Below, one piece after another: positions 1,548-23,952 of a stretch of 40,074 nt of DNA. The DNA comes from a virus: positions 1 to 40,074 of the IMG/VR virus record IMGVR_UViG_3300029743_000013; one strand, 5' to 3'. Each line of letters opens with the position of its first letter. Within the stretch, counting starts at the first letter, position 1. The position numbers and the translations under genes were made by a program. The notes under the pieces are model-generated. The model was not told where the DNA came from, ran no database searches, and worked only from the letters and a program-made list of their open reading frames with translations.

Positions 1548-1775
1548 TTACTGCCCGTCGCTGGATTCAAACAGCTCGTCCACCGTCACGCCGTACATCT
1601 TCGCCAACTTCTTGTGGTACTTCCGCAACGGTCGCCAGTCGCCAAGTTCCCAATGCGTTACGCAGGATAAGTCAACATTCAGTTTCTTTGCCACCTGTGC
1701 GCGGGTCAGTCCGGAGCGTTCTCGTAGCTCTCTCAATGTCAATTTTTGTGTCCTCCCTTCATTGTGAGTTATCAT
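1548..1775 (-). CDS. Cro-like XRE-family HTH regulator, first gene of the minus-strand early operon
   Basis: LTLRELRERSGLTRAQVAKKLNVDLSCVTHWELG is a typical XRE HTH. AAGGGAGGA sits 9 nt before an in-frame TTG at 1742, so a 64-aa product from 1742 is at least as likely as ATG 1775. Confidence 0.85.
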   Translation of the reverse strand: MITHNEGRTQKLTLRELRERSGLTRAQVAKKLNVDLSCVTHWELGDWRPLRKYHKKLAKMYGVTVDELFESSDGQ

Positions 1776-1790
1776 TGACTGCGGCGGGGA
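1773..1790. repeat. left copy of an 18-bp perfect inverted repeat
   Basis: cattgactgcggcgggga is the exact reverse complement of 2184-2201. It contains the P1 -35 hexamer and the ATG 1775-1773. Confidence 0.95.
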
Positions 1791-1803
1791 GATTTGCTAT
1801 ACT
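1775..1803 (+). promoter_or_regulatory. sigma-70-type promoter P1 (TTGACT-17-TATACT)
   Basis: TTGACT at 1775-1780, 17-nt spacer, TATACT at 1798-1803. It faces away from the cro-like gene. Predicted TSS is near 1810. Confidence 0.6.
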
Positions 1804-1845
1804 GCCGTTAGCCCTCTTTGGGCAACTTCAAAGGAGGTGGTTTTC

Positions 1846-1914
1846 GTGACCAACCTTTTGATTTTGCCTGTTCCCTTCCTGCCGGGTCGCAACAGCGGTT
1901 GCCAAAGCGCGTAA
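1846..1914 (+). CDS. 22-aa sORF inside the P1 transcript
   Basis: AAGGAGG (1831-1837) sits 8 nt before GTG 1846. Product MTNLLILPVPFLPGRNSGCQSA, stop TAA at 1912-1914. The SD is partly sequestered in hairpin 1829-1860. Confidence 0.3.
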   Translation: MTNLLILPVPFLPGRNSGCQSA

Positions 1915-2147
1915 AACTGGCTAAATGCAGCAACTGATACGGCGGAGCACTCAGTGAAGAGGTTAAAACTCACGGTGATATGCCAGTAATCATATCCCAC
2001 CGTATCGGGTACTCCCGATGGCTTACCAGCGAGAAGGCCATGCGCAGAACCAAAACTGCGAAAGTGGTAAGGCTCCAGAAGAACTTGTAGCACCATTGCA
2101 AGCGGCGAAAGCCTGCACGGGGCAAAGGGTAAACAAATTTGGACATT

Positions 2148-2183
2148 GGCCGGTGGGAATGGTGCTCCCGCCGGTCTTATGTT
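2148..2183 (+). terminator. terminator-like hairpin ending the P1 transcript
   Basis: ggccggtggg (2148-2157) pairs with cccgccggtc (2167-2176): 10 bp including two G-U pairs, with a 9-nt loop, then ttatgttt. The U-tract is interrupted. Confidence 0.4.
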
Positions 2184-2201
2184 TCCCCGCCGCAGTCAAT
2201 G
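2184..2201. repeat. right copy of the 18-bp perfect inverted repeat
   Basis: tccccgccgcagtcaatg is the reverse complement of 1773-1790. The 393 bp between the copies are non-coding. Confidence 0.95.
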
Positions 2202-2235
2202 CCCGCCGAAACCTCATAAACATGAGAAATCACAC

Positions 2236-2337: not shown

Positions 2338-2352
2338 AGGTATATGATACCT
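2338..2352. promoter_or_regulatory. candidate operator (6-3-6 inverted repeat)
   Basis: aggtat-atg-atacct. It overlaps the -10 of the minus-strand promoter at 2344-2349. Confidence 0.4.
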
Positions 2353-2372
2353 CACAGATGCGAGGTTTGCAA
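2344..2372 (-). promoter_or_regulatory. candidate early promoter PR (minus strand, TTGCAA-17-TATCAT)
   Basis: On the minus strand, TTGCAA is at 2372-2367, the spacer is 17 nt, and TATCAT is at 2349-2344. It is convergent with P2 and would give a leader of about 560-600 nt before the cro-like gene. Confidence 0.45.
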
Positions 2373-2430: not shown

Positions 2431-2802
2431 ATGTCAATTATGCAAGAGCGTGTCCTTTCTCTTATCCCTCGCAAACCTGACGGGAAATATGTGCATGGCG
2501 CAAAGGCTGATTTTGCAAGGGAACTTGGGTTTAAGAGCGGGGCGATAGTAAGCGATTGGGAATCAGGGAAAAGCGATTCATATAAAAATTATCTTTACCA
2601 AATCTCGGCGCTGCATGGCGTATCCGTTGAATACCTCCGTGGCGAAACGGACGACCCGGGCATAAAAGAAGCCCCCGCCACAGAGGGCGAGGGCTATACA
2701 GATTTGCAGAAGGCCGCTATTCAGTTTGTGTTGTCATTACCGCCGGAAAAGCTGGAGCGGTTTATAAAAATGGGTCGCGCTGCTTTTGAGGAAGACCAAT
2801 GA
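2431..2802 (+). CDS. CI-like XRE-family HTH repressor candidate
   Basis: ATG 2431 (or 2440) lies inside track ORF 2392..2802. HGAKADFARELGFKSGAIVSDWESGKS is an HTH. It is the first gene of the plus-strand lysogeny block, divergent from the cro-like gene. No S24 peptidase-like C-terminus. Confidence 0.8.
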   Translation: MSIMQERVLSLIPRKPDGKYVHGAKADFARELGFKSGAIVSDWESGKSDSYKNYLYQISALHGVSVEYLRGETDDPGIKEAPATEGEGYTDLQKAAIQFVLSLPPEKLERFIKMGRAAFEEDQ

Positions 2803-4313: not shown

Positions 4314-5641
4314 TGATAGCGGCATTGATGAGAGTGGCTTTGATAAGAGTGGCTTTGTATATCCGCGTCTCAAGCGAAGAACAGGCGCGGCATGGCCTGT
4401 CCCTGCAAGAGCAGCGGGACGCGCTGATAAGATATGCAAAAGCAAATAAAATGACCGTGGTGGGCATATATGAGGACGCGGGAATATCCGCGAGAAAGCC
4501 GTATAAAAAGCGTCCGGCGCTCCTGCGACTGCTGGGCGATTGCAAAGACGGTAAGATAGACATGATTCTGTTTGTCAAACTTGACCGCTGGTTTCGCAAT
4601 GTCGCGGGGTATTACGATGTACAAACACAGCTCGACCAGTACGGCGTAACATGGCAAGCGACGGAAGAAGATTACGAAACACGGACTGCTTCAGGGCGTT
4701 TAAAGGTCAATATTATGTTGTCAGTCGCGCAAGACGAGGCCGACCGCACAAGCGAACGAATCAAATTTATCAACGATGGAAAACGGGCAAAAGGACAACC
4801 GGCAGGCTCAAAAGCGCCTTTAGGGTATGTCATCACGGACAGGCAATACCAGATTGATAACGGCACGGTAGATGCAGCGCGAGATATGTTCGCCGCGTTC
4901 ATCCGGCTAAAAAGCGTCCTTGCCGTAAAGCGATATATGCTTGACACATGGGGCATTGACCGGGCTTATAGCAAGTATGTAAACTATTTCCGCAACCGTC
5001 TTTACATCGGCGAGGTTTACGGCATCGAAAATGCTTGTCCGGCGTTGGTTAGTAAGCAAGACTTTGACATTGTAAATGATATTATTCGCCAGCGGTCACA
5101 ACGCTGTGCGGGAGTTGACACAGACCGCGTGTATCTGTTTTCCGGGATACTGCATTGTAAAGAATGCGGGAAAACGATGCAATCGGAAACCGTAAAGAAG
5201 ACATATACATATTACCGATGCCGGACTCGGATGCTTGATAACACCTCTTGCCCTCACACAAAAAGGATACGAGAGGATGTGTTGGAAGACTACCTACTAC
5301 ACGAGCTTGCTGGAATCGCAGAGCGGAACAATAGGTACTACAAAAAGGCCGAAAAAAAGCCCACGCAAAGCGCGGACTCGATACGAAAGAAAATGAGCAA
5401 ACTAAAAACGCTATACCTAAACGATTTGATTGAGCTTGACGACTATAAAGCGGAATACTCGATCTTGAAAAGATCCCTCGAAACCGTGGAGGAAACGCCG
5501 AAGACAGACCTCGACGCCTTGAGAAACGGGCTGGGCGAATATGGCACATACTCTCGGGAAGAAAAAAAGGAATTCTGGACGCGCTTCATCAAGCGGATTG
5601 ATGCAGACAACGATGGCGCGTTTTTCGTAACGCCGCGTTAG
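4313..5641 (+). CDS. int: large serine recombinase (phage integrase)
   Basis: Resolvase-type N-terminus ALYIRVSSEEQ, a recombinase domain, zinc ribbon CKECG..YYRCRTR..CPH, and a C-terminal coiled coil. GGAGGGGG sits 6 nt before ATG 4313. Confidence 0.92.
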   Translation: MIAALMRVALIRVALYIRVSSEEQARHGLSLQEQRDALIRYAKANKMTVVGIYEDAGISARKPYKKRPALLRLLGDCKDGKIDMILFVKLDRWFRNVAGYYDVQTQLDQYGVTWQATEEDYETRTASGRLKVNIMLSVAQDEADRTSERIKFINDGKRAKGQPAGSKAPLGYVITDRQYQIDNGTVDAARDMFAAFIRLKSVLAVKRYMLDTWGIDRAYSKYVNYFRNRLYIGEVYGIENACPALVSKQDFDIVNDIIRQRSQRCAGVDTDRVYLFSGILHCKECGKTMQSETVKKTYTYYRCRTRMLDNTSCPHTKRIREDVLEDYLLHELAGIAERNNRYYKKAEKKPTQSADSIRKKMSKLKTLYLNDLIELDDYKAEYSILKRSLETVEETPKTDLDALRNGLGEYGTYSREEKKEFWTRFIKRIDADNDGAFFVTPR

Positions 5642-21146: not shown

Positions 21147-22628
21147 TCATTTTTTATACCTTCTGACAAATAACAATGATCCGTCCAATTTAAGTGCCAT
21201 GACATCAAAATCAAAATTAAGATTTCTCATAGCCCTTGCATCAAGGATTTCGATAAGTGTTCTAATGTCGAATTCACGTCCACACTGCATCACAGCTCCG
21301 CCGGGATTATTCTTAATTTGTTGTATCGCCGTTCGTAGCGCCGAATCTGCCGCTTTTTCAGTTGAAATGCTTTTTAATTCCCACAGCTTTCCACGCCACA
21401 GGTAGTCTGGGGTTTTTATTCCCTGCACATTTGCTTCTTTCAACAGAACAATCTTACCGCCAAATTGATTCCGAATTTGGTTTGCAACTTCAATTTCATC
21501 CTTATGGTCTTTTGCGCGATAACCGTTTTCATATCGCATTTTGCCTATGCGTGGAGTGGCGCTTTCATTATATTTTTTTGTTATATCTTTTGCCGTGCTT
21601 TTGAACCCACTATGATACGGCGAAATTGGTCTTGCGCCATATCCTCGCTTCGATGCCTCCCATTGCGCATAAGTCATGTCCGAGATTAACCCATCTCGCG
21701 ATCTTCGTAGCCCGTTTGATGTATCCACCCTATCCACATCCGCAATCAGCGTGCATCGGCAGTTATACACGAGGTAACCTGGCGCGGAAGTGTCCCCGGG
21801 GAACATGATCTCGTTCCCATCGGCCTTAAACGGCTTGTCAATATCTACCGTCTGACCGTCCAGCATGGCGTGAGCGTGTCGCGTGCGATTGTCCAGCGTC
21901 GCAAGCCATTGTTTCCTGAGCTTGACGCCCATCTTCTCCGCCGCCGCGTAGCTGTCCATGCGTCCGGCGTTCTGTGCTCCTGTCACGGCGGTTCTGGCCG
22001 TGCGGATGGCGGAATCGCGGCTCATAGTGGTAATGCGCATTTGCAGGTCGTCCGCCATGTGCTTGATGCTTTTGCCCTGCAAGATGGAACTGGTGACACT
22101 GGCCGTAATTTGTTTCTTGCCATACGCGAGATCAATGCCGCGTTTCAGCGCTCTGTCCTTCGGATAGTACGGCATCAACCCCGGCTGCTCCACGATCAGG
22201 CGTTTCACTGTCTGCTCGTCCCACAGGTCAAATCCAATGTCCCCGGCCACGCTCTCGATGGTGTACGCCGCATAGTTGCGGTTGAAGGAGTAGATACCGG
22301 GCGTTGCGTCGTTGGTGTAAGACACCGCCACGGCGTTTGCGTTGGTCACGCGCTGCGCTACCTTATCCCGCATGGCCTGATAGCGTTCCCCACGTCCGAT
22401 CTGATTGAGTCGCCATTGCTTATAGTCGGCTTCCGTCCATTCTTTACCGTTCTGCACAGTGCCGATCAGAGATTTCATTTCTTCGTCGCGCTTGGCAAAC
22501 TGCTCAAAGTATGTATCAATGGTCGCTTGCAGATCTTTCCCAGCCTCACGGTACAGCTTTGCAATGCGCCGTTCCAGTTTCGCAAGCTCTTGATCGGTCA
22601 GCTTGTGGCCAAGATCACTGGTCGCCAT
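21147..22628 (-). CDS. MuF/SPP1 gp7-family minor head protein with C-terminal toxin-like (PD-(D/E)xK-like) domain
   Basis: ATG 22628 after GGTGAT (track start TTG 22634). The MuF core includes YNCRCTLIADVD. The C-terminal ~150 aa are AT-rich and carry DEIEVAN...TPDYLWRGKLWELK. Confidence 0.85.
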   Translation of the reverse strand: MATSDLGHKLTDQELAKLERRIAKLYREAGKDLQATIDTYFEQFAKRDEEMKSLIGTVQNGKEWTEADYKQWRLNQIGRGERYQAMRDKVAQRVTNANAVAVSYTNDATPGIYSFNRNYAAYTIESVAGDIGFDLWDEQTVKRLIVEQPGLMPYYPKDRALKRGIDLAYGKKQITASVTSSILQGKSIKHMADDLQMRITTMSRDSAIRTARTAVTGAQNAGRMDSYAAAEKMGVKLRKQWLATLDNRTRHAHAMLDGQTVDIDKPFKADGNEIMFPGDTSAPGYLVYNCRCTLIADVDRVDTSNGLRRSRDGLISDMTYAQWEASKRGYGARPISPYHSGFKSTAKDITKKYNESATPRIGKMRYENGYRAKDHKDEIEVANQIRNQFGGKIVLLKEANVQGIKTPDYLWRGKLWELKSISTEKAADSALRTAIQQIKNNPGGAVMQCGREFDIRTLIEILDARAMRNLNFDFDVMALKLDGSLLFVRRYKK

Positions 22629-23952
22629 CGTCAATCACCGGCTCAGTCAAATCGATCACCTCTGCTGCCTTGCGCTTCATCATATCCTCATATTGGTCAA
22701 TGTCACCGTTGATCGTCAGAAGCTTCTTTGTGATGTATTCGTCATCGTAATACGCCGCGCCCAGAAGGACGTTCTGCGTTTCCTCGCTCTTGTTGATGAT
22801 CTGATTGCGCGTGTAGCTCGGCTTGTCTTCAATGCCTGCCAGGCGCAGAATCTCAACAATAAACCGCGTGACCTCGGATTCAAACTTGTCCGTCTTCAAA
22901 TCCAGAGGCACATAGCTGGCCTTAATTGCCGTTGCAGTCTGATTCCCAGCGGACACAGCCAAAGCGTCAAAGCACTGGAAATCCTCGTACAGCTTCTTCT
23001 TGAGCATATCAATGGTGCTGCTGGTGCCCTCATAGGGGGCCTCGATGGTTTTACTCTCCACCTTTGCGCCGTCATCGCCGTTGGCGTGGGCAACGTGCGT
23101 GGTTTTCAAGCGCTCCACAAATTTCGCATCGTCCAGATCGTCCATGCCGTTGCAGTTAGAAAGCACCCAATAGATTAGGTTGCCCTCATCCACATTGTTG
23201 ACCATGTTAGAGGACGCCAGATCCAGCGCGTCAATGGTGTTGCGCTTGCCGACGATCTCGGAAAGACACCGCTTGTTGTTTTTCAGTGGCACGATTGGGA
23301 AACTCGGATAATTGCCGCCGTCATAGATTTCGGTTTCACCGACATCAGCCTTGCGCTCGATCAGCTTATAGCTACGCTTCGGCTGCATGACGTCCATATC
23401 CTCGCCGCTGGGCTGGAAATATTCGGTAAAGCCGTCGATCTCATACAGCGTCGCTCTCAACGGCTTATCCTGTGCCACCTGCCAGAACCGGATACCGGCT
23501 TTCATCGCGCCGTCCTCCTCATCGTAGAGGGGGACAAACTCAAGCAGGGAGAACACGCGCAAATGCGTCAAATCCCAAAAGCCGAAGGACACGCCTGCAA
23601 TTTTTGCCTCACGTGCTGCATCCATGACTTCTTGATCGAAGTCCGGGCACAGTTTGTTCGGTGTTTCCTTCTCCGCAAAAGTTACGCCGTTGCCCAGCAG
23701 ATACGAGACTTCCTGATCCACCGCCAAGCCAAAGAACCGACTGGCCAGCTTGTGGTTTGCCGTCCACATATCCGTGTGGGCGCGACCCTGCATATCGTAG
23801 ATGATTTTTTCATAGCGGTTAATGGTTGGATTCAGACCGTTATAGTATTCCTCCGCATCCACCGCCGTCTTATATGCGTGGGATTCGCGATGCGCGTTGA
23901 TCGCGCTGCGGATAAACTCCATCCGCGCCTTTTCGTCCTCGCCCACCGCCAC
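22615..23952 (-). CDS. portal protein (SPP1 gp6-like)
   Basis: 445-aa track ORF with a GTG start. ATG 23922 (MEFIRSAINAHRE..), preceded by AAAGG, is a plausible true start. Confidence 0.88.
   Translation of the reverse strand: MAVGEDEKARMEFIRSAINAHRESHAYKTAVDAEEYYNGLNPTINRYEKIIYDMQGRAHTDMWTANHKLASRFFGLAVDQEVSYLLGNGVTFAEKETPNKLCPDFDQEVMDAAREAKIAGVSFGFWDLTHLRVFSLLEFVPLYDEEDGAMKAGIRFWQVAQDKPLRATLYEIDGFTEYFQPSGEDMDVMQPKRSYKLIERKADVGETEIYDGGNYPSFPIVPLKNNKRCLSEIVGKRNTIDALDLASSNMVNNVDEGNLIYWVLSNCNGMDDLDDAKFVERLKTTHVAHANGDDGAKVESKTIEAPYEGTSSTIDMLKKKLYEDFQCFDALAVSAGNQTATAIKASYVPLDLKTDKFESEVTRFIVEILRLAGIEDKPSYTRNQIINKSEETQNVLLGAAYYDDEYITKKLLTINGDIDQYEDMMKRKAAEVIDLTEPVIDDGDQ

Follow-up and report, generated by a model that had tools for sequence, protein, structure and literature searches.

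What is the role of a perfect inverted repeat that brackets several hundred base pairs in the lysis-lysogeny switch of a phage? This question is raised by a viral DNA of 40,074 nucleotides (IMG/VR record IMGVR_UViG_3300029743_000013, positions 1 to 40,074; hereafter, the window), in which the sequence at 1773-1790 is the reverse complement of 2184-2201 over its 18 nt (100%), with 393 nt between both arms. As reported in an initial annotation of this DNA, the match ends sharply, arm complementarity extending no further at either end, and the repeat is intertwined with a promoter, P1, whose -35 (TTGACT, 1775-1780) lies within the left arm and whose -10 (TATACT, 1798-1803) lies just inside the repeat. 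The low chance expectation given there is also reasonable, since only ~0.01-0.02 such pairs are expected per 40 kb, and 0/1000 dinucleotide shuffles of the local right-hand region equalled the observed arm score. The 16-mer core of the arm has no other copy at fewer than three mismatches in the 40-kb window. Our results show that the repeat encloses a complete RNA gene and that related phages keep the complementarity of the arms rather than their sequence. Our leading, if tentative, reading is that the arms pair in the leftward lytic transcript as an RNase III-type stalk.

The segment between the arms had been described as non-coding. This holds for proteins, but the segment is not empty: its 393 bp are a self-contained RNA gene on the plus strand, with its own promoter and terminator (Table 1). 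P1 is by sequence match a strong promoter of the sigma-70 type, and in every lineage a promoter is found at equal distance from the conserved 5′ end of the RNA, with differing sequences. This constant distance places the RNA start near position 1810, and hence the left arm upstream of the start and outside the RNA. An RNA motif that is already known, FuFi-1 (RF02986), accounts for the 3′ half of the interior with a full-length match of high score; this match ends three bases short of the right arm, and an intrinsic terminator forms its 3′ end. FuFi-1 was described as a conserved motif with a 3′ terminator, rarely found in 5′ untranslated regions and with no self-cleavage detected, and was grouped with motifs showing features of 'sophisticated biochemical function', its function being unknown (Weinberg et al. 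2017, PMC5737381). The main text of PMC5737381 makes no mention of an antisense location in a lysis-lysogeny switch or of a flanking inverted repeat. The transcription unit of the window differs from the Rfam model in that a covarying domain of ~210 nt stands in front of the motif. This 5′ domain is conserved in alignments of diverse relatives and contains 37 pairs, 20 of them with compensatory changes (RNAalifold, 16 lineages). Because it precedes the FuFi-1 motif, the transcript would measure ~375 nt, roughly twice the Rfam model. Relatives of the RNA are found in Clostridia and their phages, all FuFi-1 matches in genomes (11/11) falling in metagenome-assembled genomes of Clostridia (Lachnospiraceae, Eubacterium, Acutalibacteraceae, Agathobacter, Acetatifactor), in agreement with FuFi-1 being a motif of Firmicutes or Fusobacteria.

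Several peculiarities of this RNA were observed among the lineages, which are designated here by L numbers. In L084 and L094 the FuFi-1 part is joined to an unrelated 5′ part, L051 and L055 carry a large insertion, and L064 and L080 are two FuFi-1 copies located on one 50.9-kb metagenome contig (ERZ1034928.105). Within the 5′ domain (window ~1833-1915, plus strand), an element resembling a Shine-Dalgarno (SD) sequence, AAAGGAGG, stands 7-9 nt upstream of a GTG, TTG, ATG or CTG codon. It is followed by a short reading frame, whose window version is MTNLLILPVPFLPGRNSGCQSA and which in other lineages reads M(T/K)xLLxLPxPL(I/L), with a stop after 10-22 codons. The start codon of this frame changes from TTG to ATG between the close relatives L051 and L055. 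In the RNAalifold prediction, by contrast, the SD-like bases belong to a hairpin whose loop contains the start codon, and both a small open reading frame (ORF) and a pure RNA structure are candidates. A target was also sought, near each locus, for the invariant GGGTAAACAAATTTGG motif: a 15/17 complement is present at 2312-2328, in the leader of promoter P2, but the best matches in other lineages were at background level and this candidate was dropped.

We collected FuFi-1 loci from IMG/VR (50), genomes (11) and metagenomes (35), and fetched 80 relatives of the cro-like protein encoded beside the left arm (84-98% identical); a scan for the arm core was added. A bracket is found at the equivalent place in ~250 related phage and metagenome loci, and its offsets are shared by many lineages: one arm at or just upstream of the promoter, the other right after the terminator. 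These brackets are significant lineage by lineage, as only 0-1/1000 shuffles equalled the observed score. Their sequences, on the other hand, belong to at least five unrelated types of 14-27 nt, with compensated changes and bulges. The window-type arm pairs at 18/18 positions; the L003 type, TTGACTGCGGCAGGGA, at 16/16, with a G>A change compensated in both arms; the L042 arm, GCAAAACGCCCATGTGCCATTCCTGCT, at 27/27 (26/27 in L068). The arm of L052, ATAAAAGTTAGGAAAT..., measures 19 nt and that of L032, ATATGTAGGCTACATTGAAAA, 21 nt with 3 mismatches. The related phage L067 (26 nt, one gap) differs from L032 at several arm positions, and at these both arms have changed, so that the changes are compensated. 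In L007/L024 the shared core is extended by GCTAAGTTTT, giving arms of 27-28 nt with a bulge, and L130-type arms show a compensated replacement (GGGGA vs AGA(A/G)ATA). Complementarity even reaches past the shared arms into lineage-specific flanks, with bulges (L007, L006, L067). What is conserved is complementarity rather than sequence, and the co-variation of both arms that the initial annotation had proposed to look for in related switch regions does exist.

A second type of repeat was observed in the L033/L045/L077 group, L053 and L058 ('Class B'). The SD-like 5′ element within the RNA serves as its left arm, and its right arm follows the terminator directly; these repeats are short (10-13 nt), their mismatches are transversions, and they could pair either in a plus-strand RNA reading through the terminator or in a leftward transcript. 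Other searches around the bracket were unproductive. A scan of viral contigs for more copies of the L042 arm, or for an uninterrupted hairpin, gave only L042 itself, and relatives of its helix-turn-helix (HTH) protein searched for empty sites were too distant to supply any. A distant blastn search of a phage collection for annotated relatives returned one irrelevant match of 108 nt. The right arm is similar to the terminator's 3′ half (TCCCCGCCGC vs CTCCCGCCGG) and was considered as an alternative pairing partner, an idea rejected because it fails in the L028/L040 and L130 types.

Arms and cargo are independent of each other. Homologous RNAs are flanked by unrelated arms, and the same arms enclose interiors of ~153-156, 200, 250, 268, 323, 339-342, 380-393 and 408-411 bp. 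The cargo within them includes three FuFi-1-like variants, two of which (L098, L122) score above the Rfam threshold, as well as deletion derivatives. In the L130 group (~38 loci), whose cassette lies at positions 31-205 upstream of the cro-like gene, the cargo is a small RNA of ~130 nt, unrelated to FuFi-1 and without an Rfam family, which has an extended -10 and a terminator of its own. Another small RNA, of ~115 nt, and a basic ORF of 43 aa, rich in lysine, serine and threonine and with its own SD (MAKNSVRTSKTVASKASKALSSGKTSKTTKTIAASALSNRRSK), are also found. Besides the L130 group, the loci with such unrelated cargo comprise an L177 class, an L180 class and L265, in which a leftward ORF replaces the RNA body and promoter and terminator are retained around it. 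Since identical arms surround unrelated cargo, the role of the arms is independent of the enclosed RNA. Orientation, finally, is fixed: a -10 could be recognised in 71 of the 79 unique arm-bracketed cassettes, and in all 71 the promoter-bearing arm is the one beside the cro-like SD (71:0).

Any explanation of the repeat has thus to account for a bracket around a whole promoter-to-terminator unit, for kept complementarity, for unrelated arms with homologous cargo and the same arms with unrelated cargo, for a fixed antisense orientation next to an SD, for bulged extensions in some lineages and for absence in others. A stem in the leftward transcript explains all of these facts except the origin of perfect arms. 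The arms are the boundaries of a cassette, made of P1, the ~375-nt structured RNA and its terminator, that sits antisense at the very start of the leftward (lytic) unit and immediately upstream of the cro-like SD, from which 15 nt separate the left arm. Because the left arm lies outside the plus-strand RNA, both arms can be contained in a leftward transcript only. Such a transcript, initiated at the promoter predicted near 2344-2372 or, in some relatives, coming from upstream leftward genes instead, would read antisense through the cassette. The arms would then pair into a stem of 18 bp (14-27 bp in relatives), with the entire antisense cassette looped out and the rest of the leader, or the preceding cistron, brought beside the cro-like ribosome-binding site. 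The likeliest use of this stem would be as a processing (RNase III-type) or insulating stalk, which would keep the cro-like mRNA apart from sequence fully complementary to an abundant RNA. A helix in this transcript was one of three readings offered by the initial annotation, and it is the one that the evidence favours; the interior, however, is not the leader domain assumed there but the antisense of an independent, convergent RNA gene.

The genetic context of the cassette, which is in all cases located within a leftward unit, points to transcription through it. In L042/L068 and L010, leftward HTH genes are found upstream of the cassette and another leftward gene downstream, and where the cassette lies downstream of such genes (L042/L068, L010, L011, L053) read-through should be unavoidable. 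The upstream stop codon of L042 lies only 8 nt away from one arm, and ~22 nt separate the other arm from the next SD. Most other arm-bearing lineages inspected (the window, L003, L006, L032, L052, L067, L068) have a distance of 1-24 nt between the end of the left arm and the following SD, L010 being an exception with ~85 nt. The terminator of the RNA is not followed by a T-run on the minus strand, so it is no terminator in that direction. Predicted folding of the minus-strand RNA 1735-2240 places the 18-bp stem in both the minimum free energy and the centroid structures, and predicted pair probabilities of the stem are ~1 in seven lineages. Among uncompensated transitions in the arms, those compatible with G.U pairing on the minus strand outnumber the others by 10 to 5, plus 3 transversions (automated count on ungapped arms of one family), and inclusion of gapped arms and other families brings the counts to ~15 vs 6-7.

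A number of observations weigh against this interpretation. Predicted folding does not discriminate between strands, because the plus strand gives the same stem probabilities. The G.U bias yields p ~0.05-0.15 (a rough one-sided binomial estimate, from events that are not fully independent); it is only suggestive, and part of it could stem from promoter constraints on the left arm. The predicted leftward promoter matches the consensus at 9/12 positions only. About half of the FuFi-1 lineages have no bracket (the L004/L011 group, L033, L035, L038, L051, L053, L055, L059-L061, L069, L084, L094), among them L011, although its cassette also lies inside a leftward operon. The stem must hence be dispensable: the bracket is frequent and recurrent, yet phages can do without it. 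Furthermore, perfect arms of 16-27 nt are hard to reach by point mutation, and templated repair, gene conversion or terminal repeats suit them at least as well. Lastly, the homology of the window with L001, L003, L006, L007, L010 and L013, which have different flanks, begins and ends at the outer arm ends, and that between L042 and L068 is likewise bounded at the arm on the left side. Such breaks also fit a mobile or exchangeable module.

Indeed, we rank as the main rival a role of the repeat in DNA, an explanation that we regard as a serious possibility, if on the unlikely side. The arms would mark the ends of a small cassette with variable cargo, as terminal inverted repeats or as anchors for recombination. 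Akin to a miniature inverted-repeat transposable element (MITE) or to 'moron' exchange, the cassette would be gained, lost and swapped between phages, and RNA pairing would be incidental. This would account for the perfection of most arms, for clean insertions and deletions, and for a diversity of cargo that amounts to at least 6-7 different interiors of 153-411 bp within the same arms. It also agrees with the outer arm core, TTGACTGCGGC, being the most conserved part, with homology to phages carrying other cro/cI genes being bounded by the outer arm ends, and with the existence of empty sites. Relatives without arms and cargo are L124, L125/L144/L150/L157/L161/L169/L170 and L134. L124 corresponds to the window minus exactly the arm-bounded segment [TTGACTG...CAGTCA], with TCA at both junctions; the L125 group also lacks the 13-mer O1 described below. 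Comparison of occupied and empty sites and of breakpoints indeed places terminal inverted repeats at the exact ends of a short, transposase-less insertion, as in MITEs and Correia-like elements. However, no target-site duplication was found in the window, L003, L006, L010 or L130, apart from the 3-nt TCA at the L124/window junction, and CATTG/CAATG extends the repeat instead of being a direct repeat. No transposase was found either, nor dispersed copies within one genome at the loci examined: the core occurs at the two arms only in the 40-kb window, and in relatives as one inverted pair at the same relative position. Orientation and position beside the SD of a leftward gene are constant. Homologous cargo with at least four further unrelated arm sequences would require several unrelated families of terminal repeats, and complementarity extends into lineage-specific flanks with bulges (L007, L006, L067). 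The clean empty site, for its part, is equally well explained by hairpin-stimulated slippage between the TCA direct repeats at both junctions.

The repeat could also be a by-product without function, a scar left when the cassette was captured (for instance through inverted duplication, or by its entry into a hairpin that already existed) and maintained without mismatches through templated, quasi-palindrome repair. Perfect arms lying outside the RNA itself, and the many lineages that manage without any bracket, are in line with this proposal. We nonetheless consider it improbable, as brackets of unrelated sequence have appeared repeatedly and independently at these two boundaries, persist through cargo swaps and in phages whose cro-like proteins are only 84-98% identical, and are extended in some lineages.

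Another reading of the initial annotation took the arms for paired operator sites. In this case the arms would be bound by a protein, a repressor or a host factor, that loops the DNA and isolates the cassette or co-regulates P1 and the switch promoters. Two identical copies are present, the left one covers the -35 and spacer of P1, a typical position for an operator, and the core TTGACTGCGGC is kept across several phage backgrounds. But the arm is not palindromic and has no third copy in the 40-kb window, unrelated arms flank the same RNA in other lineages, and the right arm tolerates a TTGACT>TTGGCT change in three lineages. Moreover, the same arms are found beside unrelated cro-like and cI-like proteins, and a better operator candidate exists, a separate 13-mer, TGTGAGKTATCAT, present three times (0, 2 and 0 mismatches): one copy adjoins P1 and the left arm, another is located at the P2 -35, and the third covers the -10 of the leftward promoter. 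The switch probably has its true operators in these copies; the empty-site relative L169 also contains a related inverted pair, TGAATGTGAG(A/G)(A/T)ATCA. Arms that are shared by different repressors, together with a separate triplicate 13-mer, argue against operators and looping, which we hold to be quite improbable.

Even less probable, in our opinion, is the remaining reading of the initial annotation, an inverton. Promoter invertons, such as fimS, the capsule promoters of Bacteroides or the RecV switches of C. difficile, consist of a promoter-bearing segment of a few hundred base pairs flanked by inverted repeats of 10-30 bp. The geometry is genuinely similar here, as the arms measure 15-27 nt and the interior, of 150-410 bp, has a promoter at one of its ends, and a large serine recombinase is encoded 2.1 kb away. 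A recombinase would flip 1791-2183, so that P1, the RNA and the terminator face the cro-like operon and the terminator blocks leftward lytic transcription. Yet the flip rebuilds an identical promoter-RNA-terminator unit, and no second orientation was observed in assemblies: besides the 71:0 bias described above, 520 pairs of loci with a shared flank, from 83 FuFi loci, had the same orientation and 0 were inverted. An assembled inverted form, which would carry the junction GAGTTATCATTGACTGCGGCGGGGAAACATAAGACC, would have been caught, since the collection scans cover both strands. This constancy of orientation argues against inversion. In addition, the nearly fixed arm mismatch of the L130 group is never swapped between arms, a scan of 30 ORFs returned neither a small invertase nor a tyrosine recombinase, and arms that are unrelated between lineages would demand many site specificities. 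As for a retron non-coding RNA with a1/a2 repeats, it was rejected because the left arm lies upstream of the transcription start and no reverse transcriptase was found among the neighbouring or large ORFs scanned. Inverton, MITE, operator and retron thus each fail at least one defining feature.

The closest mechanistic analogues of the proposed stem would be the RNase III stalks around rRNAs, the RNase III sites of phage early transcripts (T7, the lambda N leader) and the Correia elements. The first two share with the bracket a long-range pairing that flanks a structured segment, and duplexes of 16-27 bp have a length suited to RNase III. They differ in that the segment bracketed here is the antisense of an RNA gene and not a functional RNA, and in that the stalk is here a prediction. 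Correia elements measure ~100-150 bp and are dispersed in hundreds of copies, with conserved terminal repeats and a TA duplication. In our case, by contrast, the loci examined show no dispersed copies and no duplication, position and orientation are fixed, the cargo is variable (often a structured RNA) and the arms differ between lineages. The resemblance lies in their being small units bounded by inverted repeats, with a promoter at an end and a hairpin in co-transcripts. The Correia repeat-enclosed elements of Neisseria (NEMIS) can carry promoter sequences at an end and, when co-transcribed with neighbouring genes, form a hairpin that RNase III binds and cleaves or protects, changing the expression of adjacent genes (PMC2649163).

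The location of the RNA, convergent to early lytic transcripts in an immunity region, is reminiscent of the cis-antisense RNAs of phage switches. Lambda oop, P22 sar, c4 of phages P1 and P7 and the CI RNA of P4 are short RNAs that act by base pairing, and the oop/cII duplex of lambda is a known substrate of RNase III. The RNA described here differs from them by its length (~375 nt) and by invariant structured elements common to phages of different immunity. To our knowledge, none of these systems has a repeat bracketing the antisense gene.

An extension of the RNA stalk, which we put forward as speculation and think unlikely to hold in full, is that the head of the lytic transcript of gut Clostridia phages contains a modular slot for antisense cassettes, whose convergent cargo genes would encode FuFi-1-type RNAs, other small RNAs or small proteins. 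Through the repeat, the transcript could structurally bypass the insert or cut it out; the stem would form only when the cargo RNA is not paired, and vice versa, and the bracket would couple the level of an RNA expressed in the lysogen to expression of the cro-like gene. If so, the lysis-lysogeny decision would have an RNA layer not described before, and FuFi-1 a first functional context. Whatever the mechanism, FuFi-1, a large and highly conserved 'orphan' bacterial RNA, is now assigned a precise place in temperate gut phages, antisense at the head of their lytic unit and in a cargo-variable slot bounded by an inverted repeat, and its conserved length is roughly doubled. We found no earlier description of the 5′ domain, the switch position, the bracket or the cargo-variable slot. 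Should the bracket act as an RNA stalk, it would reveal how convergent genes inside essential transcripts are tolerated, and perhaps exploited, by phages, and arm mutations with compensatory rescue, together with rnc dependence, offer a simple genetic handle on the function of the RNA. If it is instead an exchange module acting at the DNA level, it represents a new vehicle for the turnover of accessory genes in phages.

The features of the switch region are collected in Table 1. The cro-like gene is the first of the leftward, lytic direction, and the lytic genes of the window (terminase, portal, Mu-F, tail) are located on the minus strand. The initial annotation had it opened by an ATG in the left arm. 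This codon (CAT, 1773-1775) does open the mechanical ORF 1548..1775, but the start is more likely the TTG at 1742-1740, given the SD at 1757-1752, a Pfam HTH match that begins at residue 2-3 of the shorter version, and tblastn matches in the 80 relatives, which also begin at this TTG. The region of the predicted leftward promoter is kept in relatives, empty-site ones included. A leftward promoter at the right arm was considered and rejected, as no -10 is found at the proper spacing in any lineage. The large serine recombinase mentioned above, of the integrase type, is encoded at 4343-5641.

Table 1. Elements of the bracketed cassette and of the surrounding switch in the window
Feature	Position	Strand	Details
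Left arm	1773..1790		CATTGACTGCGGCGGGGA; covers the P1 -35 and the first 10 nt of the spacer; position kept in relatives
Right arm	2184..2201		TCCCCGCCGCAGTCAATG; starts where the T-tract of the terminator ends; position kept in relatives
Promoter P1 of the RNA gene	1775..1803	+	TTGACT, 17-nt spacer, TATACT; TG before the -10; 10/12 match
Structured 5′ domain of the RNA	1810..2021	+	Not covered by Rfam FuFi-1; start approximate, deduced from the -10
FuFi-1 RNA motif (RF02986)	2022..2180	+	Full-length match, 121 bits vs gathering score 59.6, E 5e-26, model positions 1-175
Intrinsic terminator of the RNA gene	2148..2184	+	11-bp stem (2148-2176), then T-rich TTATGTTT; terminal hairpin of the Rfam model
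Operator-like 13-mer O1	1763..1775	+	TGTGAGTTATCAT; adjoins the left arm; further copies at 2222-2234 (-) and 2344-2356 (-)
cro-like HTH gene	1548..1742	-	64 aa from TTG 1742; SD GGGAGG 1752-1757; HTH_31 1e-11, HTH_3 3e-9
Promoter P2	2236..2264	+	TTGACA, 17-nt spacer, TACAAT; 11/12 match; upstream of the cI-like gene
Predicted leftward promoter	2344..2372	-	TTGCAA, 17-nt spacer, TATCAT; 9/12 match; transcript would contain both arms
cI-like gene	2431..2802	+	No Pfam match; resembles HTH repressors of relatives

Three further observations were made elsewhere in the window. At 1440-1548 a second small unit lies on the plus strand, antisense between two leftward genes, with a promoter (TTGCCT, 17-nt spacer, TACAAT, with a TG), an RNA of ~75 nt and a strong terminator (1510-1541 plus T7). 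Its Rfam matches are sub-threshold only, and inspection of the sequence revealed no inverted repeat around it. The Mu-F-like head protein encoded at 21147-22634 on the minus strand weakly matches a CdiA toxin domain in its C-terminal part, with an E of 6e-4 that does not reach the Pfam cutoff. A 27-nt unit (TGGCGGATGCTGCGCC...) is repeated four times in tandem at the window's left edge (1-135), probably as part of a coding region extending beyond that edge.

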